Assembly (NCBI GenBank): GCA_015068735.1
Contig: SVJW01000002.1
Coordinates: 11,438 to 75,437, forward strand
Origin: Oscillospiraceae bacterium
GTDB lineage: Bacteria; Bacillota; Clostridia; UMGS1883
DNA length: 64,000 nt
Direction: 5' to 3'
How positions within the stretch are numbered: position 1 is the first letter of the stretch; every line of letters begins with the position of its first letter. Below, one piece after another: positions 5,463 to 43,778 of this stretch. Under the pieces are notes generated by a model. It saw only the letters and a program-made list of their open reading frames with translations, made no database searches and was not told the DNA's origin. The translations under genes and the position numbers were made by a program.

Positions 5463-7895
5463 TTAATTCATGCTATACGGGTTTATGTCAGCAACTATCG
5501 ATAAATCGGAGTTGCGTTTTTGTGAGCTTTCATAGATTGCCTCACGAAGAATTTTTATAAACTCCTCGTCAGCTTTGCATTTAAGCCATAGCCTCACTCG
5601 GTGCCGTCCTTGAATGCGGCTCAGAGGTGCTGCGGCAGGTCCGTAAAATGAGCAATTATCGTATGAACGTAGTGCCACTCTCAGCTTCATTGCAATTTCA
5701 GCAGCTTTCTTTTGGGCTTCCTCTTTGTCGGAGGAAGAAACGGTTATATTTATAATGTCGCAGAATGGGGGATATAAAAACTCCCGTCTGTACATAATTT
5801 CTTCTTCATAAAATGCTTTGTAATCCTGTTTTGCCGCAAGTAGCAGCGTGGGATTTTCCGGAGAATAGGTCTGAATGACACATCTTCCTTCTTTTTCGCC
5901 TCTGCCGGCTCTTCCGCAAACTTGGGTTATAAGGTTAAATGTACGCTCCTGCGCACGGAAATCGTCAACATTGAGCGAGGCGTCCGCTGCCAGTACACCC
6001 ACAAGCGTCACATCTTCAAAATCCAGTCCCTTTGTAACCATTTGCGTTCCCAGAAGTATGTCAATATTTTCATCTGTGAATTTATCCAAAAGCTTTTCGT
6101 GACCTCTTTTTCCGCTTGTGGTATCGGCATCCATTCTGAGGATTTTTCCATCCGGAAAAATGGATTCAATCTGCTCCTCGGCTTTTTGCGTTCCCTTGCC
6201 GAAATCCCGGACCCTTGTACTTTGACAGTTGGGACATACGGCATTGACTTTTTCCCTGTGACCGCAGTAATGACAGGTAAGCACATCACCGTTTTTGTGA
6301 TAAGTAAGGGAAACATTGCAGTTGGGACAGGTAAACACAAAACCACAGTCCCTGCAGGAAATGAAAGTCGAATAACCGCGTCTGTTAAGAAACAGAATAG
6401 TTTTTTCCCTGCGATTGATGTTTTCGCGAATTTCGGTGGCAAGCAGCCTGCTGAGAACGGTTTTGTTGCCGTCTTTTAATTCCTGACGCATATCTGAAAT
6501 GAAAACATCGGGAAGAGGTTTCTTATTAAAACGGTCAAGAAGCTCAATCAATGTATAGTCGCCCTGTTTTGCTTTGTAATAGCTTTCAATTGACGGGGTT
6601 GCACTTCCCAGAATAAGCGGACAATTATGCTTTTTTGCAAGGAAATGTGCAATATCTCTGGCGTGATAACGGGGGGAGGACTCCGACTTATAGGATTGCT
6701 CGTGCTCCTCGTCGATTATTATTGCGCCCACATTGTCGCAGGGAGCAAAAATTGCACTTCGCGCACCGATTATTACGGAAGCATCTCCGCGCCTTATTCT
6801 TCTCCACTCGTCAAGGCGTTCTCCGAGAGAAAGGGCACTGTGAAGAACGGCAACTTTGTCGCCAAATCGATTATAAAAACGACTTGTCATCTGTGGAGTA
6901 AGAGAAATTTCGGGAACGAGAAGAATTATCTGTTTCCCGTTTTTTAGGGCATTTAAGGCGATTTTCATATACACTTCGGTTTTACCACTGCCGGTAACAC
7001 CGTGTATTAAAAATGTGCCTGAATTCTTTTTTAATATTGTGTCAGCCGCCATTTTCTGAGAATCTGTCAGGACAAGGGGCTCTGAATCTCCGCTTTTCTT
7101 TCCCTCTAAGGGGTTGCGGAGAATTTCCGCTTCTCTGTAGGAAACAAGTCCTTTTATGTGAAGTGCTTCAACGGCGTTTCTTGTTGCACCGGAAGCAGCC
7201 ACAATATCAGAAACGCTCAGCTCACCAAATTCTGCTACAGTTTTAAGAACTGCCGCCTGTTTGGGAGCAGATTTGGATAACTTTTCGATGTGATAAGAAA
7301 TATCTTCTTCACCTGCGTAATACGCCAATCTTACGGTTTTTTCATTTGCCCGGCGTTTGTCGGTAATGCTTTTTTCACAAATTTCTTTTTTTATGAGAGC
7401 ATTCACCGTCGCTCTGGCATTTCTGCCAAGGGTGTTTTTAATTTGCGTCATTTCGGCACTGCCTTCATTTTGCTCTAAAAGTAAAATGAGCTGTTCCTGT
7501 GCTGTGCCTTTAACAAGATTTTTCTTTTCAAAATATTTGTGACTGAGAGAAATCCATTCTTCAAATTTTGCATCTGTCCCCGGGGGAATGCATAACTGTG
7601 CCGCTTCGGAAAAAGTGCAAAAGTACCGCTTCCGCATGAAAAAGCACAATTCGATACCCTTTTTAGTGAGTACGGGGAAATTATCCGTCACAGAGCGAAT
7701 GGGTTTAAGAGAATCAAAATCGCTTTTCTCTTTAACTTCCGTCACGAACGCCTCTTTGGGCATATTTCCGCCACCGAAAGAAACCTTCACCCTCACTCCG
7801 GGCATAACCTTATCCTCCAATTCCTTGGGAACAAGATAATCGAAGGGCTTGTCGATATTCAGGTTTGTAGTATTAACATAAACCTGAGCAATCAT
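5463..7895 (-). CDS. priA: Primosomal protein N' (replication restart helicase PriA)
   Basis: 810 aa ORF with the Walker A motif GVTGSGKTEV, the DExH box IIDEEH and a Cys-rich zinc-binding insert (CRDCG...CPNC...CHYCGH). It is adjacent to rpoZ. Confidence 0.9.
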   Translation of the reverse strand: MIAQVYVNTTNLNIDKPFDYLVPKELEDKVMPGVRVKVSFGGGNMPKEAFVTEVKEKSDFDSLKPIRSVTDNFPVLTKKGIELCFFMRKRYFCTFSEAAQLCIPPGTDAKFEEWISLSHKYFEKKNLVKGTAQEQLILLLEQNEGSAEMTQIKNTLGRNARATVNALIKKEICEKSITDKRRANEKTVRLAYYAGEEDISYHIEKLSKSAPKQAAVLKTVAEFGELSVSDIVAASGATRNAVEALHIKGLVSYREAEILRNPLEGKKSGDSEPLVLTDSQKMAADTILKKNSGTFLIHGVTGSGKTEVYMKIALNALKNGKQIILLVPEISLTPQMTSRFYNRFGDKVAVLHSALSLGERLDEWRRIRRGDASVIIGARSAIFAPCDNVGAIIIDEEHEQSYKSESSPRYHARDIAHFLAKKHNCPLILGSATPSIESYYKAKQGDYTLIELLDRFNKKPLPDVFISDMRQELKDGNKTVLSRLLATEIRENINRREKTILFLNRRGYSTFISCRDCGFVFTCPNCNVSLTYHKNGDVLTCHYCGHREKVNAVCPNCQSTRVRDFGKGTQKAEEQIESIFPDGKILRMDADTTSGKRGHEKLLDKFTDENIDILLGTQMVTKGLDFEDVTLVGVLAADASLNVDDFRAQERTFNLITQVCGRAGRGEKEGRCVIQTYSPENPTLLLAAKQDYKAFYEEEIMYRREFLYPPFCDIINITVSSSDKEEAQKKAAEIAMKLRVALRSYDNCSFYGPAAAPLSRIQGRHRVRLWLKCKADEEFIKILREAIYESSQKRNSDLSIVADINPYSMN

Positions 7896-7897
7896 AA

Positions 7898-8137
7898 TTA
7901 TTCCTCAACAGTTTCTTTGCTTGCTTCATATTCAGCAACAGCATCGGAAAATCTCTGGGATGCACTGCCTTTTACACACTTGATTTTGCCGTTTGCAATT
8001 TCGTTTATTGCACGGGAAACTGTCTTATCGTTTCCGGAGTCATTCTGAAGCTGGCGTGCGCGCTTTGCTGTAAGAACAACAAGTGAATAACGGGAATCAA
8101 GTCCCTCCATAAGCTTGGAAATTTCGGGATACAACAT
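7898..8137 (-). CDS. rpoZ: DNA-directed RNA polymerase subunit omega
   Basis: 79 aa ORF between gmk and priA, with an RpoZ-like [12 protein letters not shown] core. Confidence 0.8.
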
Positions 8138-8152
8138 AATAATTACCTTCCT

Positions 8153-8761
8153 TTATTTAATAAATTCTTCTTTCAAATACTCATAATTGCGAGCCATTAC
8201 ACATTTTTCCGCTTCAATGATGCTGTGAAGCACACATACCGCATTTTCAACGGTGTCATTGGTAAGCGTATAATTATATTTATCTATGTATTTAAACTCC
8301 GCTTTTGCTCGCTGGAGCCTTTTTGCGATTACATCATCAGTTTCCGTTCCTCTTCCGCGGAGACGGTTTTCCAATTCTTCCATAGACGGAGGAATTACAA
8401 ATACGAACACCGCTTCCGGATAGTGAGAACGAACCTGAAGTGCGCCCTGTACTTCTATTTCGAGAATTACGTTCTTGCCCTCGTCAAGTTTTTCCATAAC
8501 GGCATCCTTGGGAGTTCCGTAGTAATTGTCACAAAAAACTGCATGTTCCAAAAATCCGCCTGCATCAATTTTTTTCCGAAACTCGTCATGAGAAAGGAAA
8601 AAGTAGCTGACGCCGTCCACCTCGCCTTCGCGGGGAGCACGGGTGGTGGCTGACACGGACAGAGCGCAGTCATCGTATTTACTCAGATACTCCTTGCATA
8701 TAGTTCCCTTTCCAACGCCTGAGGGACCGGAAACTACAAGCAGTAAACCTTTTTTAGTCAT
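8153..8761 (-). CDS. gmk: Guanylate kinase
   Basis: 202 aa ORF with the P-loop GPSGVGKGT and a guanylate kinase fold pattern. It lies in the conserved remA-gmk-rpoZ context. Confidence 0.9.
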
Positions 8762-9023
8762 TTATATCATCCTCTTCTGTTATTTCTGTATAGCTACCGT
8801 GACGGATAGCAATAGCGTCGGGTGTCAATGCTGACAAAACAACGTGCTCGCTGTCCATAACGATAACGCTTTTTGTTTTTCTGCCGTAAGTTGCATCTAT
8901 AAGCATTCCCTTTTCGCGGGCTTCCTGTGCAATTCTTTTCACAGGGGCGCTTTCGGGAAGAGCTATGCTTATTATTCTTTCATCGGAAACAAGATTTCCG
9001 AAGCCGATATTGATTAGTTTCAT
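8754..9023 (-). CDS. remA: DUF370 protein RemA/YlzA-like (extracellular matrix regulatory protein homologue)
   Basis: 89 aa [13 protein letters not shown]..., typical of the RemA/YlzA family, located between yloC and gmk. Confidence 0.7.
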
Positions 9024-9294
9024 AATGGTTATTCCTTTACATAAGGTCTATTCACGAGTGTATAAAAATGCACAGAACGCAAAAGCACACCAATGTTATA
9101 TTTGTAGTTACCATTAATTTCCGAAAGTTATACTTTGGTAAAAATTCGCTTGGACGAATTTTTTATTATATATGCTTTTGCTACGAACAAACTTCACCTC
9201 TCGCTGTATACGCATACAGCTTCGGGTAACCCACGGCAAGCCGTGGTTCAGTTTGTCCGTTCTGCACTATTTTTCTCCACTCTAAAGAACAGGT

Positions 9295-10173
9295 TTATTC
9301 TACATTTTGGATTTGTTCTCTAAGTTTCTCAATTTCAGCCTTAACGTCTATTACAATTCTTGCAACATCAAGGTCATTGGACTTAGAGCCGATTGTGTTA
9401 ATTTCTCTGTTCATTTCCTGAATAAGGAAATCAATCTTTCTTCCCACGCTTCCGCCCTCGTCAAGCATCTTTGTAAACTGGTCAACGTGGCTTCTGAGAC
9501 GTACGGTTTCTTCATTTACATTTACCTTATCGGAGAAAATGGCAACCTCTGTAAGAAGTCTTGTTTCATCGTATGTGGCGCTTCCTAAAATGTCGCGCAT
9601 TCTTTCTTCAATTCTCTGTCTGTATTCGGTAACAATCTGAGGAGATCTCTTTTCAACCTCCGCCGTTGCATTGGCAATAAAGGAAAGATGTTCCTTAAGG
9701 TCTGCAACAAGCTTTTCGCCCTCTGCAATACGCATTGTGTCAAAGCCGTCAAGAGCCTCGGAAAGGGCTGAAAGAATTGCGTTTGAGATAACTTCTTCAT
9801 CTACATCAGCTTTATCAACCGTAAATACATCAGGAATACGAAGAAATGTCTCTGCCGTTGCGTTTGAGGAAACTTCAAGCTCCTCAGAAAGAGTTCTGAG
9901 CCCTGCAAGATATTCACGGGCAAGAGCCGCATTTACCTTAACAACGCTGTCATCCTCACCGTTTGTTTCCACATTTACATATATGTCCACCTTGCCGCGG
10001 TTAATCCTTGCTGATGCGGTTTTTCTGATAGCATCCTCCATAAATGTATAGATGCGGGGCATCTTTATGGAAAAATCGCTGTATCTGGAATTGACCGATT
10101 TAATCTCAACGGTAAAAGTTTTTGTGCCTGCTTCCGCTTTTCCGCTGCCGTAGCCTGTCATACTTTTTATCAT
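9295..10173 (-). CDS. yloC: YicC/YloC-family stress-induced protein
   Basis: 292 aa ORF with YicC N- and C-terminal regions. It is the first gene of the conserved yloC-remA-gmk-rpoZ block. Confidence 0.8.
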   Translation of the reverse strand: MIKSMTGYGSGKAEAGTKTFTVEIKSVNSRYSDFSIKMPRIYTFMEDAIRKTASARINRGKVDIYVNVETNGEDDSVVKVNAALAREYLAGLRTLSEELEVSSNATAETFLRIPDVFTVDKADVDEEVISNAILSALSEALDGFDTMRIAEGEKLVADLKEHLSFIANATAEVEKRSPQIVTEYRQRIEERMRDILGSATYDETRLLTEVAIFSDKVNVNEETVRLRSHVDQFTKMLDEGGSVGRKIDFLIQEMNREINTIGSKSNDLDVARIVIDVKAEIEKLREQIQNVE

Positions 10174-10227
10174 AGGAAAAACTCCATTCTGTCTGTGTGT
10201 GGGTATAGCACCCCATAATTATTTTAC

Positions 10228-10257
10228 ATTATATCATATATAATGTATTTTAGTCAA
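10228..10257 (-). promoter_or_regulatory. Sigma-A-type promoter for yloC on the minus strand: -35 TTGACT (rc of 10252-10257) and -10 TATAAT (rc of 10228-10233), 18 nt spacer
   Basis: Both hexamers are consensus or near-consensus. The -35 box lies inside a perfect 11-bp inverted repeat (10252-10281). The predicted TSS is about 45 nt upstream of the yloC ATG. Confidence 0.45.
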
Positions 10258-10301
10258 CCGTTTTGTGGTGAACGGTTGACTAAAACATTTATGGAGAACA
10301 T

Positions 10302-10351
10302 AAAAGCAAAGCAGGATGCAGAAGTAATTTTCTGCATCCTGCTTTGCTTTT
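10302..10351. terminator. Bidirectional intrinsic terminator (22-bp perfect stem, 6-nt loop, A/T-tract arms) 10 nt after the malic enzyme stop
   Basis: AAAAGCAAAGCAGGATGCAGAA gtaatt TTCTGCATCCTGCTTTGCTTTT. The stem arms end in T-runs on both strands. Confidence 0.6.
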
Positions 10352-10360
10352 ACCGAATTT

Positions 10361-11533
10361 TTATATCCTTGCTACACCTGTTTTTCTTGCGGCTTCCGCA
10401 ACGGCATCGGCAACGGTTTTTCCTACCCTTTTGTCGAATGCCTTGGGAATAATGTAATCAGGTGCAAGCTCGTCGTCACTTACCAATGAAGCGATTGCAA
10501 AGGAAGCCGCCATTTTCATTTCATCATTGATATCGCTTGCTCTTACATCCAATGCACCGCGGAAAATTCCGGGGAATGCAAGAACGTTATTTATCTGATT
10601 GTCAAAATCGCTTCTGCCGGTACCTACAACTGCAGCACCTGCTTTAAGGGCAAGGTCGGGCATAATTTCAGGTGTGGGGTTTGCCATGGGGAATACGATT
10701 GCACCATCTGCCATAGATTTAACCATTTCTTCGGAAACAATTCCCGGTGCAGAAACGCCGATAAATACATCAGCATCTTTCATAGCATCGGCAAGTGTAC
10801 CCTGTTTATGCTCTTTATTGGTGATTTTTGCAAGCTCTTTATGTGCCTCGGAAAGCTCTTTCATTCCCTCGCAGATTATACCGAAACGGTCAACCATAAC
10901 AAGGTTTTTTACGCCAAGCTTCATAAGATGAAGTCCGATTGCCGTTCCTGCACTTCCTGCACCGTTAATTACAACCTGCACTTTTTCAATGTCTTTTTTT
11001 ACAACCTTAAGCGCGTTGAGCATAGCAGCTGCAACAACGATTGCAGTACCGTGCTGGTCATCGTGAAATACGGGAATATCGCAGATTTCCTTTAATCTTC
11101 TTTCTATCTCAAAGCATCTTGGTGCGGCAATGTCCTCAAGGTTGATTCCGCCGAAGCTGCCGGAAATATTGTAAATAGTCTGAACGGCTTCGTCCACATC
11201 TTTTGTCTTGATACAAAGGGGGAATGCATCAACATCTGCAAATTCTTTGAAGAGGACACATTTCCCCTCCATTACGGGCATTCCTGCCTCAGGACCGATG
11301 TCACCGAGACCGAGGACAGCCGTACCGTCTGTAATAACTGCCACAAGATTGTTCCTTCTTGTAAGTTCATATGACTTGGAAATATCTTTCTGTATTTCAA
11401 GGCATGGCTCGGCAACGCCCGGTGTGTATGCAAGGGAAAGCTCCTCGGAATTAGTTACTTTCGCCTTTGCAACAACTTGAATTTTGCCGTTCCATTCGTA
11501 ATGTTTTTTTAGTGATTCTTTTCTGATATCCAT
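10361..11533 (-). CDS. NAD(P)-dependent malic enzyme (short form, YtsJ/MaeB-like)
   Basis: 390 aa ORF with a malic enzyme N-terminal domain and the NAD-binding motif [14 protein letters not shown]. Confidence 0.85.
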
Positions 11534-11544
11534 AATTTATCCCC

Positions 11545-12627
11545 TCAGTTAATTCTTGCTACTTCTGCACACATAAGTAAGAACGCGCCTACACCGTGAA
11601 GGTCATTTGCAACGGTGGGACGTTCAATATATCCCTGATAATCCTTAACGCCTGTTCCTACGCAAACCTTATTGACATAGATTTCGTCGCCCTTCTTTTC
11701 CACGCTGTCATAAATTGCATCGAAGCATTCATTTACATAATCTGTATAGCTCTTATCCAAGATACCCATATAAATTGCCTTGGCAATTGCGGCAGTGAAA
11801 AGACAACTACAGGATGTTTCAATCCAGTTTCCTGCACAGTCGCCCTTGTCAATAACCTGATACCACATTCTCTTCTGTGCGTCTCTGTATTTAATAATGC
11901 TTGCAAGAACAGCCTTTTCAATTTCGATAAGCTTTTCTCTTCTGGGGTGATTATCAGGCATAAACTGTAAAATATCTAAAATTGCAACAACATACCAGCC
12001 CTGAGCTCTGCCCCAGACTTCAGGAGAAAGTCCTGTTGCAGGGTCTGCCCATTCAACTTCCTTTGATTCGTCCCAAGCGTGGAACATAAGTCCGGTTTTT
12101 GCATCGAGCATATTTTCGTACATAATTACTGCCTGCTCAGCAGCTTCATCCAGAAACTTTGTTTCACCGCTGAAAACAGCATATTCTGCCTGAATGGGCC
12201 CTCCCATATACAAAGAATCCAGCCACATCTGATTGGGGTGCATGTCCTTGTGCCAGAAACCGCCGGCATTGTTCTTTTTCCAGGTTCTTAATATATCAAT
12301 CAGCGTACCCAGAGCAATTTTATATTTTTCATCCTTTGTTCTCTCATAAAGAGGGAAGAGCAGGATTCCCGGCTGAATATCGTCAAGACGGGTGGGGTCA
12401 TATGTATCAATTGTACCGTCTTCCTGAATAATAGAATCAACCCACGCTTTTATATAATCGTAATATTTCTCTTCTCCTGTAAGTTTGTAATTATTCATCA
12501 TGCCGGACAAAAATACACCCTGGTGGTAATGGAATAATTTTTCCGGGGGAAGATCCTTTGCATTTTTAAAGTTACTCATCATAGTATCGCAGAGTCTGCG
12601 AGCAGTGTCTAATACTTTTTCTTTCAT
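11545..12627 (-). CDS. GH88/GH105-family unsaturated (rhamno)galacturonyl/glucuronyl hydrolase (YteR/YesR-like)
   Basis: 360 aa cytoplasmic ORF with an (alpha/alpha)6-type sequence pattern. It is paralogous to the ORF at 58836-59957, and both resemble B. subtilis YteR/YesR. Confidence 0.75.
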   Translation of the reverse strand: MKEKVLDTARRLCDTMMSNFKNAKDLPPEKLFHYHQGVFLSGMMNNYKLTGEEKYYDYIKAWVDSIIQEDGTIDTYDPTRLDDIQPGILLFPLYERTKDEKYKIALGTLIDILRTWKKNNAGGFWHKDMHPNQMWLDSLYMGGPIQAEYAVFSGETKFLDEAAEQAVIMYENMLDAKTGLMFHAWDESKEVEWADPATGLSPEVWGRAQGWYVVAILDILQFMPDNHPRREKLIEIEKAVLASIIKYRDAQKRMWYQVIDKGDCAGNWIETSCSCLFTAAIAKAIYMGILDKSYTDYVNECFDAIYDSVEKKGDEIYVNKVCVGTGVKDYQGYIERPTVANDLHGVGAFLLMCAEVARIN

Positions 12628-12827
12628 AAATAAACTCTCCCTTATGGATAATGATTGCAGGTTAATTATATATATAAGTAGGGCTTCCTGTCAATATCAT
12701 ACCAGTATTTGTCAGTGGAATTCTTGTGTTTGTCCGTTGAAATAACAGGGTGATTGATGCTATTATTAGAATGAGATTTTACACTCGATTACAACGCGGT
12801 TTTTATTTGAAAATATGAGGTGTTAAG

Positions 12828-15068
12828 ATGACTTTGCAAGGGATTAAGTCAAAAATAGGAAAATATAAGATATTATCTGTAATCATAATTTCATATGTTG
12901 TCGTTATATCTCTCTTTGTTGCTGCATTTGTTGCGATATATTTTTACTCGCAGAATGCATTTCGTTCTTATTTCGACTACAATTCAAAAATTATAGCAGA
13001 TAATATCTCCGATAAATATGAAGAAAGTATTGAAAGCATCAATACGATGGTTGTTAATTCTATTCTGAGCAACAGTAATCTTCAGAATGATATACAAGAG
13101 ATATGGGAAGGAACAAGTTCTTATGAAAGTTGCTGGAAAGTAAGAAATCAACTGGCAAAAGAATTGTATGACACAAACTACCTGACAGAGGCTCTGATCT
13201 ATGTTGAAAACAGGGATCTGATAATTTTCTCCACGGGATTTTGTTCTACAAAAACGTATTACGAGGCATATGCAAAAGACAATTTTTCTGACTATGATGA
13301 ATTTCTTTCCTTTTTAGACGGAGAAAAGATGCCGAAGAATCTGTATTCTCAAGACACTATGCAGATGTTTTCCCGTAAGCAGTATTATTTGTATGAGGAA
13401 GGCGTGGAAGTCGGTAAAATAATAGTTAAAAATGATATGGAAAGCTTACTTCATAATTTTACTGATGAAAATTCTAATGTGGTGATAGTTGAGGATGAGT
13501 ATATTCTCGCAAGTTCCGACGGAGAATTGGCATCGGAACTGTTAAAAAAGGATCTTGATAGCCGTGATACGTTTAAACTCGGCGGAAAACTTGTTTATAA
13601 AAGCAGCATAGGCGGTGGCAGGAGAAAGTGCTTCTACATTGTTGACATGGACAAAATGAATGAAGCAAATAAAACATACAGTATGTTTGTAATCGGTGTA
13701 TGTATGATTTGTTTATTGATATGTATTGCCGCTTGTACATTCTTTGTCCGTTTCCATTATATGCCCATAAAAAAATTTGTGGATTTTATCAGAGCAAAAA
13801 ATAAAGGTAGCGGAGAAAACAGTGGGTACAGAATTTTTTCAAATGCCGTAAGCTACATAGAGACCAATGAAAAAAGTGCAGAGAAAGAAATAGAGGCAAA
13901 GGAACGTAATTTAAGGGAAATCCATTTAGAACAATGGCTTTTGTATAAAAAGAGCAATTCCAAAGAAATGCTTAAGGCCGAACCACAAAAAAATTACGCA
14001 TTAGTGGTAATCAAGGCGGAAGAATATGAAAATATCTTCTTTGAAGAACTGTATGAGAAAAAGTCGGTAAAATCAGAAATGGCAAACTATATTCTTGCAA
14101 ATATTTTTGATGAGGAGCTTTGTAACAATTTTACCGATGTAATAAAGTGCAAAATAAATGATTTGTTGATATGGATGGTTGTTTTTGACGATACACCGCA
14201 ATGGAAAGACAAGATCAATGAAATTGCACAGCGGACGTTAAAACTGACAAAGGAAGAATTCAATATTTCTTTTGAGTGTTACACAAGTGATTCGTGTGAT
14301 ACTATGGAAAAGTTATCAGAGGATTTTGATTTGCTTATGGTAGAAATTAAACAGAAAAATGAAAATACAGATTTAAAACTGTTTTCGGAAAATGAAAAAG
14401 AAGAAAAAACTGTTTATTACTTCCCGGAAGCATTGAAGAAGCAGTTATACGACAGCATTGAGAACGGTAATACAAAGAGTGCAGCGGTGATTTTGGATAA
14501 CATTCTTAATCATAATGTACAGATTATGCACTCGGAACTTAACAACCTCAAAGCGTTGGCAACAGAAATTTACAATACGGTAATTCTTCGTTTGAGATGT
14601 CTGGATATTGAGGTGGAGAAGCTGTTTGAAGAAAACCGTCTGGGAAAAGACATTATTATGTGTGAACAGGCGGAAGTGCTGGAGCGTGAATTGAAAAAAT
14701 TCATAGAGTCTATGTGCGGTATCTTCTGTGCGGGAATAAACAGTACCGACAGCGTATATGCAAAAACCAGAAGAATTATATATCAACACTATAAGGACCC
14801 GCTTCTGTCCAGTACAACCATTGCAGATAAACTTGGGATAAGCCGTGACTATTTCCTCAGCGTATTCAAAAAGGAAAGCGGAATGAAAGTTGCGGACTAC
14901 ATTCATCAGATAAGAATTGAGGAAGCTTGTAAAATACTCGAAAAAACAAATTCTTCAATTGAAAAGATAGCAACGCAGGTGGGCTATTCAAACACCAAGA
15001 CATTTTCAAGAGTATTTGTGAAACTAAAAGGGGTAACTCCCGGAGTTTACCGCGACAAACTTAAATAA
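12828..15068 (+). CDS. Membrane-anchored one-component AraC-family regulator (two TM helices flanking a ~250 aa extracytoplasmic sensor region; C-terminal AraC HTH)
   Basis: 746 aa ORF. TM1 spans residues ~16-40 and TM2 ~285-308. The C-terminal ~100 aa carry the AraC HTH (IATQVGYSNTKTFSRVF). No HisKA/HATPase or receiver motifs are visible. The RBS is GAGGTG. Confidence 0.7.
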   Translation: MTLQGIKSKIGKYKILSVIIISYVVVISLFVAAFVAIYFYSQNAFRSYFDYNSKIIADNISDKYEESIESINTMVVNSILSNSNLQNDIQEIWEGTSSYESCWKVRNQLAKELYDTNYLTEALIYVENRDLIIFSTGFCSTKTYYEAYAKDNFSDYDEFLSFLDGEKMPKNLYSQDTMQMFSRKQYYLYEEGVEVGKIIVKNDMESLLHNFTDENSNVVIVEDEYILASSDGELASELLKKDLDSRDTFKLGGKLVYKSSIGGGRRKCFYIVDMDKMNEANKTYSMFVIGVCMICLLICIAACTFFVRFHYMPIKKFVDFIRAKNKGSGENSGYRIFSNAVSYIETNEKSAEKEIEAKERNLREIHLEQWLLYKKSNSKEMLKAEPQKNYALVVIKAEEYENIFFEELYEKKSVKSEMANYILANIFDEELCNNFTDVIKCKINDLLIWMVVFDDTPQWKDKINEIAQRTLKLTKEEFNISFECYTSDSCDTMEKLSEDFDLLMVEIKQKNENTDLKLFSENEKEEKTVYYFPEALKKQLYDSIENGNTKSAAVILDNILNHNVQIMHSELNNLKALATEIYNTVILRLRCLDIEVEKLFEENRLGKDIIMCEQAEVLERELKKFIESMCGIFCAGINSTDSVYAKTRRIIYQHYKDPLLSSTTIADKLGISRDYFLSVFKKESGMKVADYIHQIRIEEACKILEKTNSSIEKIATQVGYSNTKTFSRVFVKLKGVTPGVYRDKLK

Positions 15069-15207
15069 AGGGCATTGCCGTAAATGGGAGTTAAAACACG
15101 GGTTTTGTCCCTTGTGAATAAAAAAGCGTGCTGATAGAATATTATTGAGAGTTTAATTTGCTCAGTATTATGAGCGTGTATAAAAAAATTAGAAAGAAGG
15201 AAAAGAA

Positions 15208-16746
15208 ATGAAAAAAATCAAGTTGATGGCTATTGCCGGTGTTTTGTGCTTGTCTCTTATTCTGACATCTTGTGCAAGCCTCGGCCTTAGCAAAAAGGAA
15301 TCCAAACCGGAAGGAACTATTTCATACTGGATGCCTCTGTCTGCTACCGATAAGGTGGAAATCAAGGATATGGCAAAAACTCCTCTTGGCAAGGCGTTGA
15401 AAGAAAGAACAGGTATAGATGTAGAATACATCCATCCTGACAGTGATGAACAGTTCAATCTTATGCTTGCATCCGGCGACCTTCCCGACATAATCCAGAC
15501 AAACTGGGTTACAGATTATCCCGGTGGCCCCGAAAAAGCAATTCAGGAAAAGCAGATTATCACATTTGACGAAATGATGGAAGAATATGCTCCCAACCTT
15601 ACAAAGTACCTTAAGGAACATCCGGAAATCGACAAGCTTGTTACAACAAATGACGGTAAGCACTATATGTTCCCCTTCATCAGAGGTGACGAGTATCTTC
15701 TTATTTCTCACGGTCCCGTTGTAAGAAAAGACTGGCTTGATGATTTGGGAATGGAAGTTCCTGAAACAATGGATGATTGGTACAATATGCTCAAGGCATT
15801 CAAGGAAAAAGCAAGTGGCGCACCCCTTACTACATATCTTCCCCTTGTAAACGGTATCTTCTCATCCGCATACGGTGCTCCCCAGGCTTTCTTCGTTGAT
15901 AACGGAGAGATTAAATACGGTCCTATACTTGACGGATACAAAGAATGTCTTATGGAACTTAACCGTTGGTATAAAGAAGGTCTTCTTGATAACAACTTCA
16001 TGGGCCTCGACTCAAAGATGATGGATAGTGCTATTCTTACAGGCGGAAGCGGTGCAACTGTAGGTTCTGTAGGTAGCGGTATCGGTAAGTGGATGGCTGC
16101 AGCCCAGGAAGAAGGTTATGAACTTGTAGCTGCTCCCTATCCTGTACTTAACAAGGGTGAAAAAGCAATGTTTAGTGCAAGACAGAATGCTGCACCCGGC
16201 TTTGGCGCTGCTATTTCTGCAAAATGTAAGAATCCCGAAATCGCTATGCAGTTCCTCGACTACTTCTACAGCGAAGAGGGTCTGATGCTTCTTAACTTCG
16301 GTATCGAAGGCGAAAGCTATGAAATGATTGACGGTTATCCCACATATACAGAACTTATAACAAAGAATCCTAACGGTAAGTCTATGGCTGCGATGCTCGG
16401 TCAGTATGCAAGAAGTGCAACACAGGCACCTTTTGTTCAGGACAGAAGATATATGGAACAGTATGCTTCACTTCCTCAGCAGAAAGATGCAATTGAAGTT
16501 TGGGGAAATACTGATGCTGACAAACATATTCTTCCTCCGTTAGCACCCTCTGCAGAAGAAAGCAGCGAGCTTGCAAAAATTCTCGGAGACGTAAATACAC
16601 ACGTGGAAGAATACACAACAAAGTTTGTAGCAGGACAGATTTCGTTTGATGATTGGGATAAATATATTTCACAGCTCAAGACACTTAAGATTGAAAGAGC
16701 AATTGAGATTTATCAGAATGCATATGATGTATATTCCGCAAAATGA
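15208..16746 (+). CDS. ABC transporter extracellular solute-binding lipoprotein, LplA/YtcQ family (oligosaccharide)
   Basis: 512 aa ORF with a signal peptide and the lipobox LTSCAS. This is the ~500 aa family-1 SBP type associated with LplB/LplC permeases. Confidence 0.8.
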   Translation: MKKIKLMAIAGVLCLSLILTSCASLGLSKKESKPEGTISYWMPLSATDKVEIKDMAKTPLGKALKERTGIDVEYIHPDSDEQFNLMLASGDLPDIIQTNWVTDYPGGPEKAIQEKQIITFDEMMEEYAPNLTKYLKEHPEIDKLVTTNDGKHYMFPFIRGDEYLLISHGPVVRKDWLDDLGMEVPETMDDWYNMLKAFKEKASGAPLTTYLPLVNGIFSSAYGAPQAFFVDNGEIKYGPILDGYKECLMELNRWYKEGLLDNNFMGLDSKMMDSAILTGGSGATVGSVGSGIGKWMAAAQEEGYELVAAPYPVLNKGEKAMFSARQNAAPGFGAAISAKCKNPEIAMQFLDYFYSEEGLMLLNFGIEGESYEMIDGYPTYTELITKNPNGKSMAAMLGQYARSATQAPFVQDRRYMEQYASLPQQKDAIEVWGNTDADKHILPPLAPSAEESSELAKILGDVNTHVEEYTTKFVAGQISFDDWDKYISQLKTLKIERAIEIYQNAYDVYSAK

Positions 16747-16769
16747 CAGATATAGAATGAGGTTTTACA

Positions 16770-17720
16770 ATGAAAAGAAATACTTCGGTGAATAATTCAT
16801 TACATAAAAAATGTTTTATTTCTCGACTTGGCAGGGATTTGTATAAGAACAAACTGATGTATTTGATGGTTCTCCCTGCGCTTCTGTTCTACTTTATATT
16901 TGCATATAAGCCAATGTACGGTGCAATTATTGCCTTCAAGGATTACTCTCCGTCGTTGGGAATAGAAGGAAGCCCCTGGGTAGGACTTAAGCATATTGAG
17001 GAGTTCTTTAAATCATTTTACTTTGACAGAACAATAAAGAATACCATAGTTATCAGTTTGGCATCTATTTTTATCGGTTTTCCCATGCCTATCATTTTTG
17101 CACTGCTGATAAACGAATTAAGGAATAAAAAGTTTGCTAAATGTGTCCAGACTGTTTCTTACGTTCCGCACTTTATTTCAATAGTGGTAGTTTGCGGTAT
17201 GATAAAGCAGTTTACACTGGATACAGGTCTCATAAATGACATCATAGCATTTTTCGGCGGAACAAGAGTGTCGATGCTGAATGATCCGGACTACTTTGTT
17301 CCCATATATACTTTGTCAAATATTTGGCAAGGTATGGGATGGCAGTCTATTATATATCTGGCAGCACTTACCTCTGTTGATTCCAGCCTTTATGAAGCTG
17401 CGGAGGTGGATGGAGCAAGCCGACTCAGGCAGGTGTTTACAGTTACATTACCTGCCATAGCTCCTACAATCGTTACCATGTTCCTTCTCAAGATTGGTAA
17501 CATTCTGAATGTAGGCTATGAAAAGATCATTTTGCTTTATAATCCCGCAACATATGAGACGGCAGACGTAGTTTCGTCGTATGTATACAGACAGGGTCTT
17601 CTCGAATTTAACTGGAGCTATTCTGCTGCGATCGGACTCTTCAATTCTGCGATTAACTTAGTGCTTCTTATTTCGGCAAACTATTTGAGCAAAAAAGTAG
17701 CAGATACTTCACTGTGGTAA
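16770..17720 (+). CDS. ABC transporter permease, LplB/YtcP-like
   Basis: 316 aa polytopic ORF with the EAA loop YEAAEVDGAS. Confidence 0.8.
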   Translation: MKRNTSVNNSLHKKCFISRLGRDLYKNKLMYLMVLPALLFYFIFAYKPMYGAIIAFKDYSPSLGIEGSPWVGLKHIEEFFKSFYFDRTIKNTIVISLASIFIGFPMPIIFALLINELRNKKFAKCVQTVSYVPHFISIVVVCGMIKQFTLDTGLINDIIAFFGGTRVSMLNDPDYFVPIYTLSNIWQGMGWQSIIYLAALTSVDSSLYEAAEVDGASRLRQVFTVTLPAIAPTIVTMFLLKIGNILNVGYEKIILLYNPATYETADVVSSYVYRQGLLEFNWSYSAAIGLFNSAINLVLLISANYLSKKVADTSLW

Positions 17721-17732
17721 GGAGATGAGATC

Positions 17733-18602
17733 ATGAAGAAAAAAATATCAGTTTTTGACATAATAAATTTCATCATATGTGGTTTGATAGGGCTTGTTTG
17801 CGTCTATCCGTTCTACTATGTTGTTATGGCATCTTTCTCAGATCCATCCAAACTAATGGGGCACAACGGAGTTCTGCTCGCTCCGCTCGATTCAACTCTG
17901 GGCGCTTATGAAGAGATTTTCAAAAACGAATTGTTGGTAGGAAGCTTCCGTAATACTTTTCTTATCCTGTTTATCGGTGTAGCATTAAGTATGATTGTCA
18001 CAACAATGGCTGCATACTTTTTCTCAAGAAAAGATATTATGCTTCAGAAACCCTTGTTCCTTTTGGTTCTGCTTACAATGTTTGTAAGCGGTGGTTTAGT
18101 ACCTCTTTATTTAACAGTTTGTGACCTTGGTATAGACGATACTTTATGGGCTGTTATTCTTCCGACGGCAGTATCAACCTATAACCTGATAGTGCTGAGG
18201 ACAGGGTTTATGTCGGTACCTGAATCTCTGATAGAATCGGCAAAGCTTGACGGAGCCAGCGACTTCACTGTCTTTTCGAAGATAGTGCTTCCTTTGTCAA
18301 AAGCACCGCTGGCGGTTATTCTGCTTTATTATTTGGTAGAAAACTGGAACTCTTGGTTCAATGCAAGTATTTTCCTGAGAGATAAATCGCTTTATCCGTT
18401 GCAGCTTGTATTACGTCAGATTCTTCTTTCAAATAATACCGATTCTATGATGGGCGGCGCTGACGTAGGTGACTACGAAAGCTTCTCGGAAACTCTTAAG
18501 TATGCAATTATCTGTATATCTACAGTTCCGATGCTTCTCATTTATCCCTTCCTGCAGAAACATTTTGCAAAAGGCGTAATGATAGGAGCGGTCAAAGGTT
18601 AA
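17733..18602 (+). CDS. ABC transporter permease, LplC/YteP-like
   Basis: 289 aa polytopic ORF with the EAA-like loop ESAKLDGAS and the RBS AAGGAG. Confidence 0.8.
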   Translation: MKKKISVFDIINFIICGLIGLVCVYPFYYVVMASFSDPSKLMGHNGVLLAPLDSTLGAYEEIFKNELLVGSFRNTFLILFIGVALSMIVTTMAAYFFSRKDIMLQKPLFLLVLLTMFVSGGLVPLYLTVCDLGIDDTLWAVILPTAVSTYNLIVLRTGFMSVPESLIESAKLDGASDFTVFSKIVLPLSKAPLAVILLYYLVENWNSWFNASIFLRDKSLYPLQLVLRQILLSNNTDSMMGGADVGDYESFSETLKYAIICISTVPMLLIYPFLQKHFAKGVMIGAVKG

Positions 18603-18648
18603 TAATCAAAACTATAAAAATAAAAATATAAAAAAAGGAGAGATTGCG

Positions 18649-20670
18649 ATGAAAAAATTATTCAGCATTCTTCTTGCCATGGCGATGGCATTTACTCTTT
18701 TATCTTTGCCTGTAATGGCAAAACCCTATGTAGCACTTGATTCAGAACTTATGCCCGTTAAGGAAACTATTCTGAATCTTGAGTTTAATGACAGTGCAAA
18801 CAGATACTGGGGAAACTATGTCGGTGAATCCGGACTTTTCTGGAACAACGGTAGTGTTGGTGCTAACGCTGTTTCAGTAGCAGGCGGCACATTAACAAGC
18901 GGCAATTACCTCAATGTTACAGGCGAAATCTATATGCAGTTAAAGCATCCCTCCACCGGTGCAAACGGTTGGGCAGCAACTGCAGCAGAATACGATGTGG
19001 CAACAAATCCCCTTCGCGGCAGCTATGTAACAGAATTTAAGTTTATGCTTCCCTCATTGCCTACTACTGCAATGAAGAGCTTCTATACAGCTCATTCAAA
19101 CAGCGGAGAAGGCACATCCCACGGTCCCAAGCTCTGGGTAACAACAGGTGGTAGCCTTAATGCGTATACTACAAACGGCGCTGCTTTTACAGCTGCCTCA
19201 CTTACAGCAGGTACTTGGTACACACTCAAAATTGTGAACAACATTGATACTGACAGCTATGACCTTTACCTCAACGGTGTTCTTGTAGCAAACGATGCAG
19301 GATACTGTGACGGTAAGTTCTATGCAGATTCTTTCAGCAGACCTTTCATGATGAAAACTGAAGGAAACCCCGTATATATAGACGACCTTAAAATGTATAA
19401 GGAAGTTACCGGCAGACAGACTTTTGCTGCAGATGATTTCTCATCTTACAGCGCAGATGCTTCCTATAATTCTACTACAGAATTAAGAGAATTCGGTGGT
19501 TTTGCTCTTTATCCCAGAAACGGATATCAGGCAGGGGTTAAAATTGATGCAACAAACCAGCGTGCAGAATTCAGCTCCGGTGCTAACCTCTTTGCAGGCT
19601 TTGCAAAGACATGGAATCAGCCGGATAATACTCTTACAGATTCACTTATCGGTAAGAAGCAGGTTGCTGTAGAATTTGATTTCACCCCCTCAGCTGAAAC
19701 AGTAGGTGACTTTTACCAGATTACAGATGCTGTAGGAACACATTACGGTCTTATCCTTGCTGCAACAAACGGAAAAATTTCTGCAAAAATAGGTGCAGAG
19801 GGCGATGTTACTCCCGACAGCGCAAACAGAGGCGTAGACCTTGCTTCCTTTACTGCAGGAGAAACTTACAGAATTAAGGTATATGTTGACCTTGATAAGA
19901 AGTTTACACAGAATCTTATAGGAAACTCAACAGCATCTCACAACAAGGAACATACTCGTTCCGGTAAGGCAGATATATATATCGACGGTAAGCTTGTAGG
20001 TGAAGAACTTCCTCTTCGTTATAACTGTGGCAGCGCATCTAATGCAAGCTACGATATAACAAACCTGGGAAGACCTTTCGCTGCGTCCGGTGGTTCATCT
20101 GCAACATACTACATCGACAATATTGCTGTTTATACAGATGTAAGAGAAAAGGTTCTTTCATCAGCTCTTAATGCAGTTGAAAAGACTGTTTCCGAGAAGA
20201 CATTTACTCTTCCTTCCTCTACAGTTGACGGATATGCTATTACATGGGCAAGCGACAGCGACGCAATAGCAATTTCCGACAATACTGCTACAGTTACAAC
20301 AAGTGATGCAACACAGAAGGTAACCCTTACTGCAACCGTAGCTGATACGGCAGGAGAGCTTGCTGTATCAGGCAAAGTAGATGTTATCGTTTATCCCGAT
20401 TATGAAGTATTCGTAGGTATGGACGGCAATATCTTTGCCAGCACTATCTTCTACGACAACTATAATTCAGGCAAAACCGTAGATTTATATGCGGTACTTT
20501 ATAATTCCGACCTTAGTATGGAAAACTGTGTCGTAGTCGATAATGCAGTGAGCGGAAAAAGTAATCCTATTTCACTCACCCGCGGTGAAGGACAGACCAT
20601 AAGAATTTTTGTGTTCACAGACAATACTTTAGTTCCTGTGAAGTTTACCGAACTTAATTCTAAGAAATAA
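18649..20670 (+). CDS. Secreted protein with two LamG/concanavalin-like beta-sandwich modules and a C-terminal Ig-like domain; function unknown
   Basis: 673 aa ORF with a signal peptide (MKKLFSILLAMAMAFTLLSLPVMA). It carries two W-x-x-L-K-[IV]...[LI]Y-[LI]-[ND]-G LamG-like patterns and a Big-like C-terminus. The RBS is AAGGAG. Confidence 0.5.
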   Translation: MKKLFSILLAMAMAFTLLSLPVMAKPYVALDSELMPVKETILNLEFNDSANRYWGNYVGESGLFWNNGSVGANAVSVAGGTLTSGNYLNVTGEIYMQLKHPSTGANGWAATAAEYDVATNPLRGSYVTEFKFMLPSLPTTAMKSFYTAHSNSGEGTSHGPKLWVTTGGSLNAYTTNGAAFTAASLTAGTWYTLKIVNNIDTDSYDLYLNGVLVANDAGYCDGKFYADSFSRPFMMKTEGNPVYIDDLKMYKEVTGRQTFAADDFSSYSADASYNSTTELREFGGFALYPRNGYQAGVKIDATNQRAEFSSGANLFAGFAKTWNQPDNTLTDSLIGKKQVAVEFDFTPSAETVGDFYQITDAVGTHYGLILAATNGKISAKIGAEGDVTPDSANRGVDLASFTAGETYRIKVYVDLDKKFTQNLIGNSTASHNKEHTRSGKADIYIDGKLVGEELPLRYNCGSASNASYDITNLGRPFAASGGSSATYYIDNIAVYTDVREKVLSSALNAVEKTVSEKTFTLPSSTVDGYAITWASDSDAIAISDNTATVTTSDATQKVTLTATVADTAGELAVSGKVDVIVYPDYEVFVGMDGNIFASTIFYDNYNSGKTVDLYAVLYNSDLSMENCVVVDNAVSGKSNPISLTRGEGQTIRIFVFTDNTLVPVKFTELNSKK

Positions 20671-20681
20671 TTGTATCAAAC

Positions 20682-20732
20682 TATAGGGGTGACGTACGCC
20701 ACCCCTATAGCTGTAAATTAGAACAGGCTTTT
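20682..20732 (+). terminator. Candidate terminator: long hairpin (CTATAGGGGTG-N8-CACCCCTATAG) followed about 10 nt later by a T6 run
   Basis: A near-perfect 30-nt palindrome begins 12 nt after the stop of the 18649-20670 ORF. GGCTTTTTT follows at 20720-20731. Confidence 0.35.
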
Positions 20733-20758
20733 TTATGGAAGATTTTAGGAGAAAATTT

Positions 20759-21610
20759 ATGCGATACAGATTTTTAAGATTCCCCGGCGGAAAAGAAAAA
20801 GCAGTAACGCTCAGTTATGATGACGGAAAACCGGAAGATATCCGCTTTTCTGAAATCATAACAAGTTACGGTCTTAAATGTACATTCAATCTTAACTGTA
20901 AAAAACAGCGTGATGTTTTTTTGACTGATGAGCAGGTTCAGGAGCATTTTCTGAGTAAGGGTCACGAAATTGCGGTTCACGGGGCTTTGCATAAAGCAGA
21001 AGGTTGTATTCGTCCCATAGAGGGAATAACAGATATCCTTGAATGTCGGCTGGAGCTTGAAAAACGCTTTGGCAGAATTATTAAGGGTATGGCATATCCC
21101 GATACAGGCATAAATTTGTTCTCCAATAACGCTTCCTATGAATCCATAAAAAACTATTTAAAAGAGCTGGATATTGTTTATGCAAGAACAATAGACGGAG
21201 ACAATAATTCTTTTATGCTTCCCGATGATTGGTATTCTTGGACCCCCACAGCACATCACGGCAACCCCGAAATAATGGAATACATAGAAGAATTTAACTC
21301 AATCAATCTATCAAAAAGCACTTTCATGCCCGGCAGAGCCCCCAGACTTTTTTATATGTGGGGACACAGCTTCGAGTTTGAAAGAGCGAAAAACTGGGAC
21401 TTGCTCCGGAAAATTTCCGACAAGCTCGGTGGTAAAGACGATGTTTGGTACGCAACAAATATCGAGATATACGATTATGTAAATGCGTACAACAACCTTA
21501 GTTACAGTGCGGACGGCACAATGATTTATAATCCGGCATTATTTGAGATTTGGCTTGATATTGATGGTGAAACGTACAGTATCGCCCCGGGAGAAATGCT
21601 TAAATTATGA
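20759..21610 (+). CDS. Polysaccharide deacetylase (CE4 / NodB-homology domain)
   Basis: The RFPGGKEKAVTLSYDDG NodB motif 1 lies near the N-terminus. The second in-frame ATG (20759) has an AGGAG RBS; the first ATG (20735) has none. Confidence 0.6.
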   Translation: MRYRFLRFPGGKEKAVTLSYDDGKPEDIRFSEIITSYGLKCTFNLNCKKQRDVFLTDEQVQEHFLSKGHEIAVHGALHKAEGCIRPIEGITDILECRLELEKRFGRIIKGMAYPDTGINLFSNNASYESIKNYLKELDIVYARTIDGDNNSFMLPDDWYSWTPTAHHGNPEIMEYIEEFNSINLSKSTFMPGRAPRLFYMWGHSFEFERAKNWDLLRKISDKLGGKDDVWYATNIEIYDYVNAYNNLSYSADGTMIYNPALFEIWLDIDGETYSIAPGEMLKL

Positions 21611-21641
21611 GCGAGACTATATATTGACAGGAGTAAAGCTT

Positions 21642-24314: not shown

Positions 24315-24328
24315 AGGGTGAAAACATT

Positions 24329-26089: not shown

Positions 26090-26105
26090 GTAGGAGGTAA
26101 ATAGT

Positions 26106-28757: not shown

Positions 28758-28794
28758 TGCAGAAAACCGAAATTGGTTATAAAAGGTGATTACT

Positions 28795-31431: not shown

Positions 31432-31452
31432 TCTTTGAAAGAGGGATTATAT

Positions 31453-37671: not shown

Positions 37672-37687
37672 AGGAGAATTTATATTT

Positions 37688-39811: not shown

Positions 39812-39839
39812 AAGCAATATCAGAAAGGACAAAAGCACA

Positions 39840-41252: not shown

Positions 41253-41267
41253 AAGGGAAGAATTTGT

Positions 41268-43768: not shown

Positions 43769-43778
43769 TAATCAGCAT

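Follow-up and report, generated by a model that had tools for sequence, protein, structure and literature searches.

A 64,000-nucleotide stretch of contig SVJW01000002.1 (assembly GCA_015068735.1, Oscillospiraceae bacterium; positions 11,438 to 75,437), hereafter the window, encodes on its forward strand a 746-amino-acid protein (12828..15068; ATG start), which is read here as a membrane-anchored one-component AraC-family sensor-regulator of the type represented by YtdP of Bacillus subtilis. This protein, hereafter the regulator, is composed of a first transmembrane segment (TM1) with a cytoplasmic N-terminus, a double-Cache (dCache) sensor domain, a second transmembrane segment (TM2), a HAMP-like segment, a GGDEF_2-like domain, a helical domain and a C-terminal AraC-type helix-turn-helix (HTH) domain. 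On the basis of profile comparisons it is a divergent member of a large family which includes YtdP and whose architecture has already been catalogued through Pfam. The reading, together with the mechanism proposed below, is assigned a probability of roughly 70 %.

Domain architecture and membrane topology

The regulator gene is the only long open reading frame (ORF) at 12828-15068, with a Shine-Dalgarno sequence (GAGGTG) located 6 nt 5' of its ATG codon. Antisense ORFs within the gene (e.g. 14445-14906, minus strand) were regarded as fortuitous. Topology was assigned on the basis of hydropathy and charge distribution. Kyte-Doolittle analysis distinguished exactly two strong hydrophobic segments, TM1 (residues ~16-40; 12873..12947) and TM2 (residues ~286-308; 13683..13751), both of which also feature in the AlphaFold2 model, TM1 as a helix. 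Positive charges are found in the Lys-rich N-terminus preceding TM1 (K7, K9, K12 and K14) and in an Arg/Lys-rich stretch following TM2. According to the positive-inside rule, residues 41-285 are thus placed outside the cell and the C-terminal 440 residues inside.

The only Pfam matches on the regulator are to HTH_18 (E 8.5e-21) and HTH_AraC (E 8e-13) at residues 665-743, within the AraC-type double HTH domain (14748..15065), and NCBIfam matches are likewise confined to this region. The closest structural matches of the HTH domain are the C-terminal domain of YesN (3lsg) and AraT (6swi). HisKA, His_kinase, HATPase_c and Response_reg showed no Pfam match on the regulator, even at E ≤ 1. Residues 1-640, compared as a profile against the PDB, gave zero matches, even at E ≤ 10. 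The AlphaFold2 model of the full-length protein (pLDDT 73) incorporates a long N-terminal helix, two extracytoplasmic alpha/beta modules and TM2 running into a helix, followed by an alpha/beta domain (residues 389-513), a helical domain (residues 534-637) and the HTH.

The extracytoplasmic domain (residues 41-285; 245 aa; 12948..13682), when modelled alone, reached a pLDDT of 87 and a predicted TM-score (pTM) of 0.80. Foldseek comparison of this model against the PDB gave 97 matches at E ≤ 1e-3, with TM-scores of up to 0.62; the fifty listed of these 97 belong either to the dCache/Cache type or to other classes of extracytoplasmic sensor domain, and the dCache matches include the ligand-binding domains of McpB/C, TlpA, Mlp24, Tlp3, TlpC, McpH and DctB. 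In relatives of the regulator, Pfam places dCache_1 at the same position as this ectodomain. The preliminary description of this DNA had posed the question of a Cache or dCache domain, and the structural model and its Foldseek matches confidently predict a dCache fold.

The segment following TM2 (residues ~309-350; 13752..13877) was recognised as HAMP-like by alignment (hmmalign) with YesM-like kinases and YtdP. It comprises a 'P313-I' motif of the AS1 type, in which P313 is nearly invariant across the family, and, after a short connector, an amphipathic helix resembling AS2. Next follows an alpha/beta domain (residues ~386-513; 13983..14366) which resembles GGDEF_2 (PF17853). The predicted order of its elements, beta-alpha-beta-beta-alpha-beta, is GGDEF-like and unlike that of the flavodoxin-like receivers, and in the family alignment it aligns with the GGDEF_2 domains of YtdP and YesN-like response regulators, without a Pfam match of its own. 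The helical domain (residues ~530-640; 14415..14747) is also present in YesN-type response regulators. The preliminary description is thus borne out by hydropathy, charge and Pfam as regards the 746-residue protein with its two transmembrane segments, ectodomain and C-terminal AraC HTH; what it had termed a cytoplasmic linker of ~340 residues is predicted to be cytoplasmic but is no linker, being made up of the HAMP-like segment and the GGDEF_2-like and helical domains.

Model confidence is low and conservation poor at residues 320-349, after TM2, and at residues 514-529. These two stretches would fit regulated proteolysis, in which signal-dependent cleavage near TM2 would free a soluble AraC fragment, and some membrane-tethered regulators are known to work by cleavage. 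This alternative is nevertheless considered very improbable, given that no protease gene is conserved among the orthologous loci that were compared, that retention of the HAMP-like motif and colinearity with kinase sensors (see below) point to conformational signalling, and that ToxR and CadC bind DNA without release.

Relatives of the regulator and the YtdP family

A word-indexed search returned only seven full-length relatives of the regulator (44-70 % identity), all derived from metagenomes or metagenome-assembled genomes (MAGs), and the exact protein is absent from the collection of 15 billion proteins, the best match sharing 70 % identity. All domains are conserved among the seven relatives, with 38-67 % identity in the ectodomain, which indicates that the regulator gene is a real gene under selection. 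A HMMER profile of residues 1-640, from which the HTH had been removed, was then compared against 1.84 billion cluster representatives (50 % identity clusters). This subfamily profile matched at least 567 representatives at E ≤ 1e-3, nearly all of them 740-800 aa in length with alignments running from end to end; at E ≤ 1e-10 the number was 178. Pfam analysis of 62 members identified HTH_18 in all (62/62), GGDEF_2 (PF17853) in 48/62 and dCache_1 (PF02743) in 38/62, with kinase or receiver families reaching the list of matches in none (0/62). The regulator and the clade closest to it (P0015-P0019) have diverged to the point where the Pfam models fail, and they are bridged to the remainder by intermediates such as P0023 (E 1.5e-22 to the subfamily profile), which carries both dCache_1 (2.9e-11) and GGDEF_2. 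A word-indexed search with the 62-sequence alignment was of no further use, its matches being confined to the close relatives already found and to YesN-like response regulators.

Two aspects of the deposited records of relatives may be mentioned. For P0006 (MAG GCA_964385605.1; L001 5758-7998), the deposited call of 729 aa starts at 5809, 17 codons short of the family-aligned ORF of 746 aa (5758), and thereby lacks part of the N-terminus and TM1. The receiver-less proteins P0212, P0218, P0221, P0228 and P0254 carry misleading database names, such as 'YesN/AraC family two-component response regulator', 'two-component system response regulator YesN' and 'response regulator transcription factor'.

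The gene divergent from the regulator gene (11545..12627, minus strand) encodes a GH105 unsaturated rhamnogalacturonyl hydrolase, a homologue of B. subtilis YteR (E 9.7e-99 to 1nc5). While its Pfam label is 'Glyco_hydro_88', its close homology to YteR indicates a locus of the rhamnogalacturonan type rather than of the glycosaminoglycan type. With the YteR sequence of the 1nc5 alignment as query, 80 YteR loci were retrieved from named genomes of Bacillaceae. In the locus of Bacillus spizizenii TU-B-10, a gene coding for a 771-aa protein (L006:6459-8774) is situated between the ytcQ/ytcP-type and yteP/yteR-type genes. Pfam identifies dCache_1 (residues 42-286; above the gathering score), GGDEF_2 (residues 394-529) and HTH_18 in this protein, which is 96 % identical to B. 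subtilis P0181 (772 aa; database name 'helix-turn-helix domain-containing protein'). The latter is YtdP of the ytcPQ-ytdP-ytePRSTUV locus. This locus serves in the uptake of rhamnogalacturonan I and polygalacturonan products (PMC5730181).

BlastP alignment of the regulator with the YtdP ortholog extends beyond the HTH (27 % identity over residues 462-744; E 1e-19), and the family hidden Markov model (HMM) without HTH matches YtdP orthologs over the entire length of the model (1e-57 to 1e-75). With the HMMER filters off (--max), the narrow subfamily profile also matches YtdP orthologs, at profile positions ~250-638 (5e-11 to 1e-7). The contrast drawn in the preliminary description, according to which homologous Bacillus loci rely on two-component systems, was therefore overstated, since the ytcPQ-ytdP-ytePR locus uses the same one-component type. 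Literature searches found no experimental characterisation of YtdP, and no paper explicitly describing the dCache-AraC architecture or the membrane nature of such regulators. The family is very common in the sugar-utilisation loci of Bacillota, yet its members are named generically or wrongly and there is hardly any mechanistic study of them.

A second B. subtilis protein merits comparison. YesS (761 aa; AraC/XylS-family) is a pectin-induced, positively autoregulated activator, residues 406-510 of which (HBD) bind HPr, with His~P-HPr needed for activation; the study dealt with control by HPr and made no mention of membrane topology (PMC2788870). Like the regulator, YesS is a protein of ~760 aa with a C-terminal AraC HTH. 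It activates the rhamnogalacturonan (yes) operon, so that both proteins would govern the uptake and degradation of substrates of the rhamnogalacturonan type, and its HPr-binding residues coincide, by coordinates only, with the GGDEF_2-like domain of the regulator (residues ~386-513). By length and coordinates only, YesS looks like a paralog of the regulator. It was not among the matches listed from a YtdP-seeded search. YesS, presumably identical to RhgR, is probably a member of the membrane/dCache family as well.

The overlap in coordinates lies at the root of an alternative that appears quite unlikely, namely that the decisive signal arises in the cytoplasm, where the GGDEF_2-like domain would sense HPr, His~P-HPr or an imported metabolite, with the membrane part serving mainly as an anchor or secondary input. 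HPr binding by YesS, and its dependence on His~P-HPr, lend themselves to such an interpretation. The ectodomain of the regulator is, however, as well conserved as its cytoplasmic domains and has a confident dCache fold, which argues for a real extracellular input. Furthermore, HPr control in YesS represents catabolite control and leaves substrate specificity unexplained, and the kinship of YesS with the regulator is suggested by length and coordinates only.

Relation to the YesM/YesN two-component systems

The family profile without HTH also matches proteins of ~600 aa encoded in other YteR loci (profile positions ~20-380; E 1e-12 to 1e-25), as well as the proteins of 511-528 aa encoded adjacent to and downstream of these, where profile positions ~362-666 match residues ~125-420 of the target (E down to 5e-31). 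On the basis of their Pfam domains, the former are YesM-type kinases (dCache_1, HAMP, His_kinase PF06580 and HATPase_c) and the latter YesN-type regulators (REC PF00072, GGDEF_2 and HTH_18). In the hmmalign alignments, the kinases cease to align in the HAMP region, where the kinase motif 'RPI/NPL' corresponds to 'YMPI' in the regulator and 'YKPI' in YtdP, while the YesN-like response regulators begin to align at residue ~125, right after their receiver (REC) domain. These alignments support the view that the family corresponds to a YesM sensor, TM2 and HAMP-like segment joined to a YesN protein minus its receiver. The fusion of a YesM-like sensor to a YesN-like output that had been suggested beforehand thus holds at the level of the family profile.

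YtdP-type regulators are encoded in 43 of the 80 Bacillaceae YteR loci (L003-L082) and YesM-like kinases in 19, with 18/19 of these kinases adjoining a YesN-like regulator; one locus (L029) contains both types. The occurrence of either the one-component or the two-component type beside the same GH105 gene indicates that the two versions replace each other in one genomic niche.

The database names 'YesN/AraC family two-component response regulator' and 'response regulator transcription factor', given to some relatives, would suit a cryptic two-component element, that is, a degenerate kinase or receiver in the region between TM2 and the HTH engaging in phosphotransfer with an unlinked partner. 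Against this stand the failure of HisKA, His_kinase, HATPase and REC to match the regulator at E ≤ 1 or to reach the list in any of the 62 relatives, and the observation that the kinase core and receiver are exactly the parts missing from the YesM/YesN alignment. The strand order of the alpha/beta domain is GGDEF-like rather than receiver-like. In addition, His310, the sole His of this region that is invariant in the eight-member subfamily, is replaced by Asn in the consensus of the wider family, so that no His in it is conserved family-wide, and YesN-like response regulators align only after their receiver. A cryptic phosphorelay is essentially excluded, in line with the absence of H-box, ATPase and receiver motifs noted in the preliminary description.

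Locus organisation and candidate operators

The regulator gene lies directly upstream of a gene coding for a solute-binding protein (SBP), as had been described, the latter starting 139 bp after the regulator gene. This SBP (SBP_bac_1 by Pfam; 512 aa; 15208-16746, forward strand) is the counterpart of YtcQ. Two permease genes follow on the same strand (16770-17720 and 17733-18602), which together encode the counterparts of YteP and YtcP in a CUT1-type ATP-binding cassette (ABC) importer. BlastP identities to the B. spizizenii proteins are 24 % for the SBP (YtcQ; full length) and 46 % (YteP) and 41 % (YtcP) for the permeases. The SBP operon probably extends from 15208 to about 33870, as the intergenic gaps are at most 64 nt. 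The order GH105 (minus strand), regulator, SBP, permease, permease, ~675-aa protein and deacetylase is conserved in five orthologous loci.

The two intergenic regions were aligned across six loci, those of the window and the five orthologous loci, and both alignments feature invariant blocks amid variable sequence. Exactly two copies of the motif TTTGTCC[CG]TTG are present in the 64-kb window, at 12729 and 15104. With C or T at the seventh base, every orthologous contig likewise carries two copies and no others, one preceding the regulator gene and one preceding the SBP gene, always in the same orientation. The candidate operator of the regulator gene (12705..12739, forward strand) was delimited by comparison and consists of a distal repeat, GTATTTGTCA (12705-12714), and a proximal repeat, GTGTTTGTCCGTTG (12726-12739), 21 bp apart. 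Overlapping this proximal repeat is the -35 element of a promoter-like sequence whose -10 element is extended (TTGAAA-18-TGnTATTAT; 12737..12766, forward strand). The candidate operator of the SBP operon (15080..15114, forward strand), likewise delimited by comparison, includes a degenerate distal repeat, GTAAATGGGA (15080-15089), 22 bp upstream of the proximal repeat, GTTTTGTCCCTTG (15102-15114), which again overlaps the -35 element of a promoter-like sequence, here too with an extended -10 element (TTGTGA-17-TGnTAGAAT; 15112..15140, forward strand). In contrast to the weak -35 elements at these two sites, the GH105 promoter (12694..12665, minus strand) has a perfect sigma-A consensus (TTGACA-18-TATAAT), and the orthologous loci share each of its two hexamers.

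Direct repeats spaced by two turns of the helix, the proximal one reaching into the -35 element, are an arrangement typical of AraC-type activators. The same arrangement is seen in the tandem-repeat sites inferred upstream of promoters for AraC-family sugar regulators of Caldicellulosiruptor bescii (PMC8579813). The motif before the regulator's own gene also fits the positive autoregulation of YesS. The placement of the motif thus suggests that the membrane-tethered regulator activates both its own gene and an uptake locus of the rhamnogalacturonan type. An intrinsic terminator hairpin of the regulator gene was considered as an account of the conserved block upstream of the SBP promoter and dropped as a general feature: the stems in the orthologs L001 and L089 were good, but RNAalifold gave no consensus structure and the terminator scan found none there. 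A scan of positions 9000-19000 against Rfam found no RNA family.

The locus of one ortholog, which shares 44 % identity with the regulator (L002), has genes for SLH-domain proteins downstream and no ABC transporter. Tandem TTTGTC[CT] repeats 21 bp apart are nevertheless found before its regulator gene (6327-6361) and before the downstream gene (8716-8752), which indicates that the operator travels with the regulator and not with the transporter. This locus bears on the possibility, here regarded as rather unlikely, that sensing is SBP-dependent, with the dCache domain reading the ligand-loaded SBP (15208-16746) or transporter activity instead of free sugar, as is the case in some sensor kinases and chemoreceptors. 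In the window and the five orthologous loci the SBP gene invariably follows the regulator gene directly, and stimulation of dCache-containing receptors by SBPs is documented in general. The L002 ortholog, however, retains both the ectodomain and the operator repeats without a downstream ABC transporter, and nothing in the data indicates a protein-protein interface.

Further genes of the window

Two long co-directional gene runs (18649-33870 and 34264-44648, forward strand) encode large proteins which either have no Pfam match or contain only SLH or aBig_2 domains. The runs also hold genes for a polysaccharide deacetylase, a GDSL esterase, a GH106-like rhamnosidase, an M81/MlrC peptidase-like protein, amidohydrolases and an EamA transporter, and they represent a large, mostly uncharacterised cell-surface polysaccharide-processing cluster. 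A 923-aa ORF (21543-24314, forward strand) has a TTG start and a 68-nt overlap with the preceding deacetylase gene. Judging by its orthologs in L001 and L002 (886 and 894 aa, respectively), the true start probably lies further downstream.

In several orthologous loci a classical soluble cupin-AraC regulator (293-296 aa) is encoded just downstream of the GH105 gene (L083 3770-4651, L084 621-1502, L085 65-955 and L087 73-963, all minus strand), a position occupied in the window by a malic enzyme gene (10361-11533). The region 5463-10173 (minus strand) contains a YicC-like gene (9295-10173; the one gene of the four that was scanned) followed by ORFs of 89, 202 and 810 aa, in an order which appears to resemble the yloC-remA-gmk...priA arrangement of Bacillota. 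Along with a G+C content of 40 %, this order is suggestive of an uncultured member of the Bacillota, the phylum to which the flanking genes also point.

Proposed mechanism

It is proposed that a fragment of a rhamnose- and uronic-acid-containing polysaccharide of the rhamnogalacturonan type, released by degradation outside the cell, would bind the dCache domain there, and we infer that the regulator is a sensor of extracellular oligosaccharide. Binding would cause a conformational change which TM2 and the helices of the HAMP-like segment relay, with no phosphotransfer involved, to the GGDEF-like domain and the helical domain. In response the AraC domains, which probably act as a dimer, would switch to binding the TTTGTC-type direct repeats 21 bp apart, and the membrane-tethered regulator would activate its own promoter and that of the operon for the SBP, permeases and enzymes. 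A further input, from the cytoplasm, may enter through the GGDEF-like domain, comparable to that of His~P-HPr in YesS.

Several observations weigh against the interpretation as a YtdP-type one-component sensor-regulator. dCache_1, HAMP and GGDEF_2 went undetected by Pfam on the regulator itself. The Glu of HAMP-AS2, which is near-invariant in the family, is Gly333 in the regulator, so that its HAMP is degenerate. Direct hhalign comparison of the narrow eight-sequence subfamily gave colinear but weak alignments with both the YesM-like kinases (E 0.0086; probability 4.7 %) and the YesN-like regulators (E 6e-4; probability 28 %). As a result, the homology of the regulator to YesM and YesN relies on transitive homology, through the family and the stepping-stone sequences. 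The assignment of the operator motif is purely comparative, and another factor could bind it, for example a cupin-AraC protein, of which the window has none.

A YtdP-type regulator at this position would likely be the specific activator of a large and mostly uncharacterised cell-surface polysaccharide-utilisation cluster, and this annotation of the locus comes with promoter and operator-repeat predictions that are amenable to testing. The architecture itself is already known, and no new kind of system has been discovered. A more far-reaching suggestion concerns the family as a whole, which could be a two-component system collapsed into one polypeptide, with the dCache domain, TM2 and HAMP-like segment driving the AraC domain through the GGDEF-like domain without phosphoryl chemistry and promoters held at the membrane. 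The sensor of the divergent clade, which Pfam no longer recognises, may in this view bind a fragment of some still undefined rhamnose/uronic-acid polysaccharide that the many unknown SLH-anchored proteins encoded downstream would process. The odds are rather against this tentative proposal; if true, it would amount to a minimal and portable transcription switch that spans the membrane, needs no phosphorylation and has a new ligand specificity. The alignment of the two halves with YesM and YesN, together with the alternation of YtdP-type regulators and YesMN pairs beside the same GH105 gene, has some value both for annotation and for considering the interconversion of two-component and one-component systems.

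Comparison with known systems

The closest known counterpart is YtdP, which resembles the regulator in its size and in its overall plan of a dCache ectodomain between two transmembrane segments, a GGDEF_2 or GGDEF_2-like domain and HTH_18. The YtdP locus likewise encodes a YteR-type GH105 enzyme, an LplA/YtcQ-type SBP and YteP/YtcP-type permeases. The two proteins share an overall identity of only ~18-27 %, however, and of the two it is YtdP alone in which Pfam detects dCache_1 and GGDEF_2. The gene order and orientation also differ between the two loci, and the locus in the window continues into a far larger set of genes for SLH-anchored and unknown proteins.

The YesM/YesN systems possess the DHp/His_kinase, HATPase and receiver domains that are absent in the regulator. 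Given this absence of both kinase and receiver domains, signalling by the regulator must be phosphorylation-independent and take place within a single polypeptide. As judged from the alignments, the regulator family is either derived from or ancestral to YesMN-type systems, yet is not a member of them.

The hybrid two-component systems (HTCS) of Bacteroides resemble the regulator, by analogy only, in that they are single membrane polypeptides which sense glycan fragments outside the cell and end in an AraC-type domain (PMC3404733). They differ in having a complete kinase and receiver and other periplasmic sensor folds, their sensor and transmitter parts being non-homologous to those of the regulator. 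Similarly, ToxR and CadC combine membrane-anchored DNA binding with an extracytoplasmic sensor (PMC10629549). This likeness is an analogy only, as ToxR and CadC carry an N-terminal winged helix of the OmpR type, a single transmembrane segment and unrelated sensor domains, as opposed to the dCache domain between two transmembrane segments and the C-terminal AraC HTH of the regulator.

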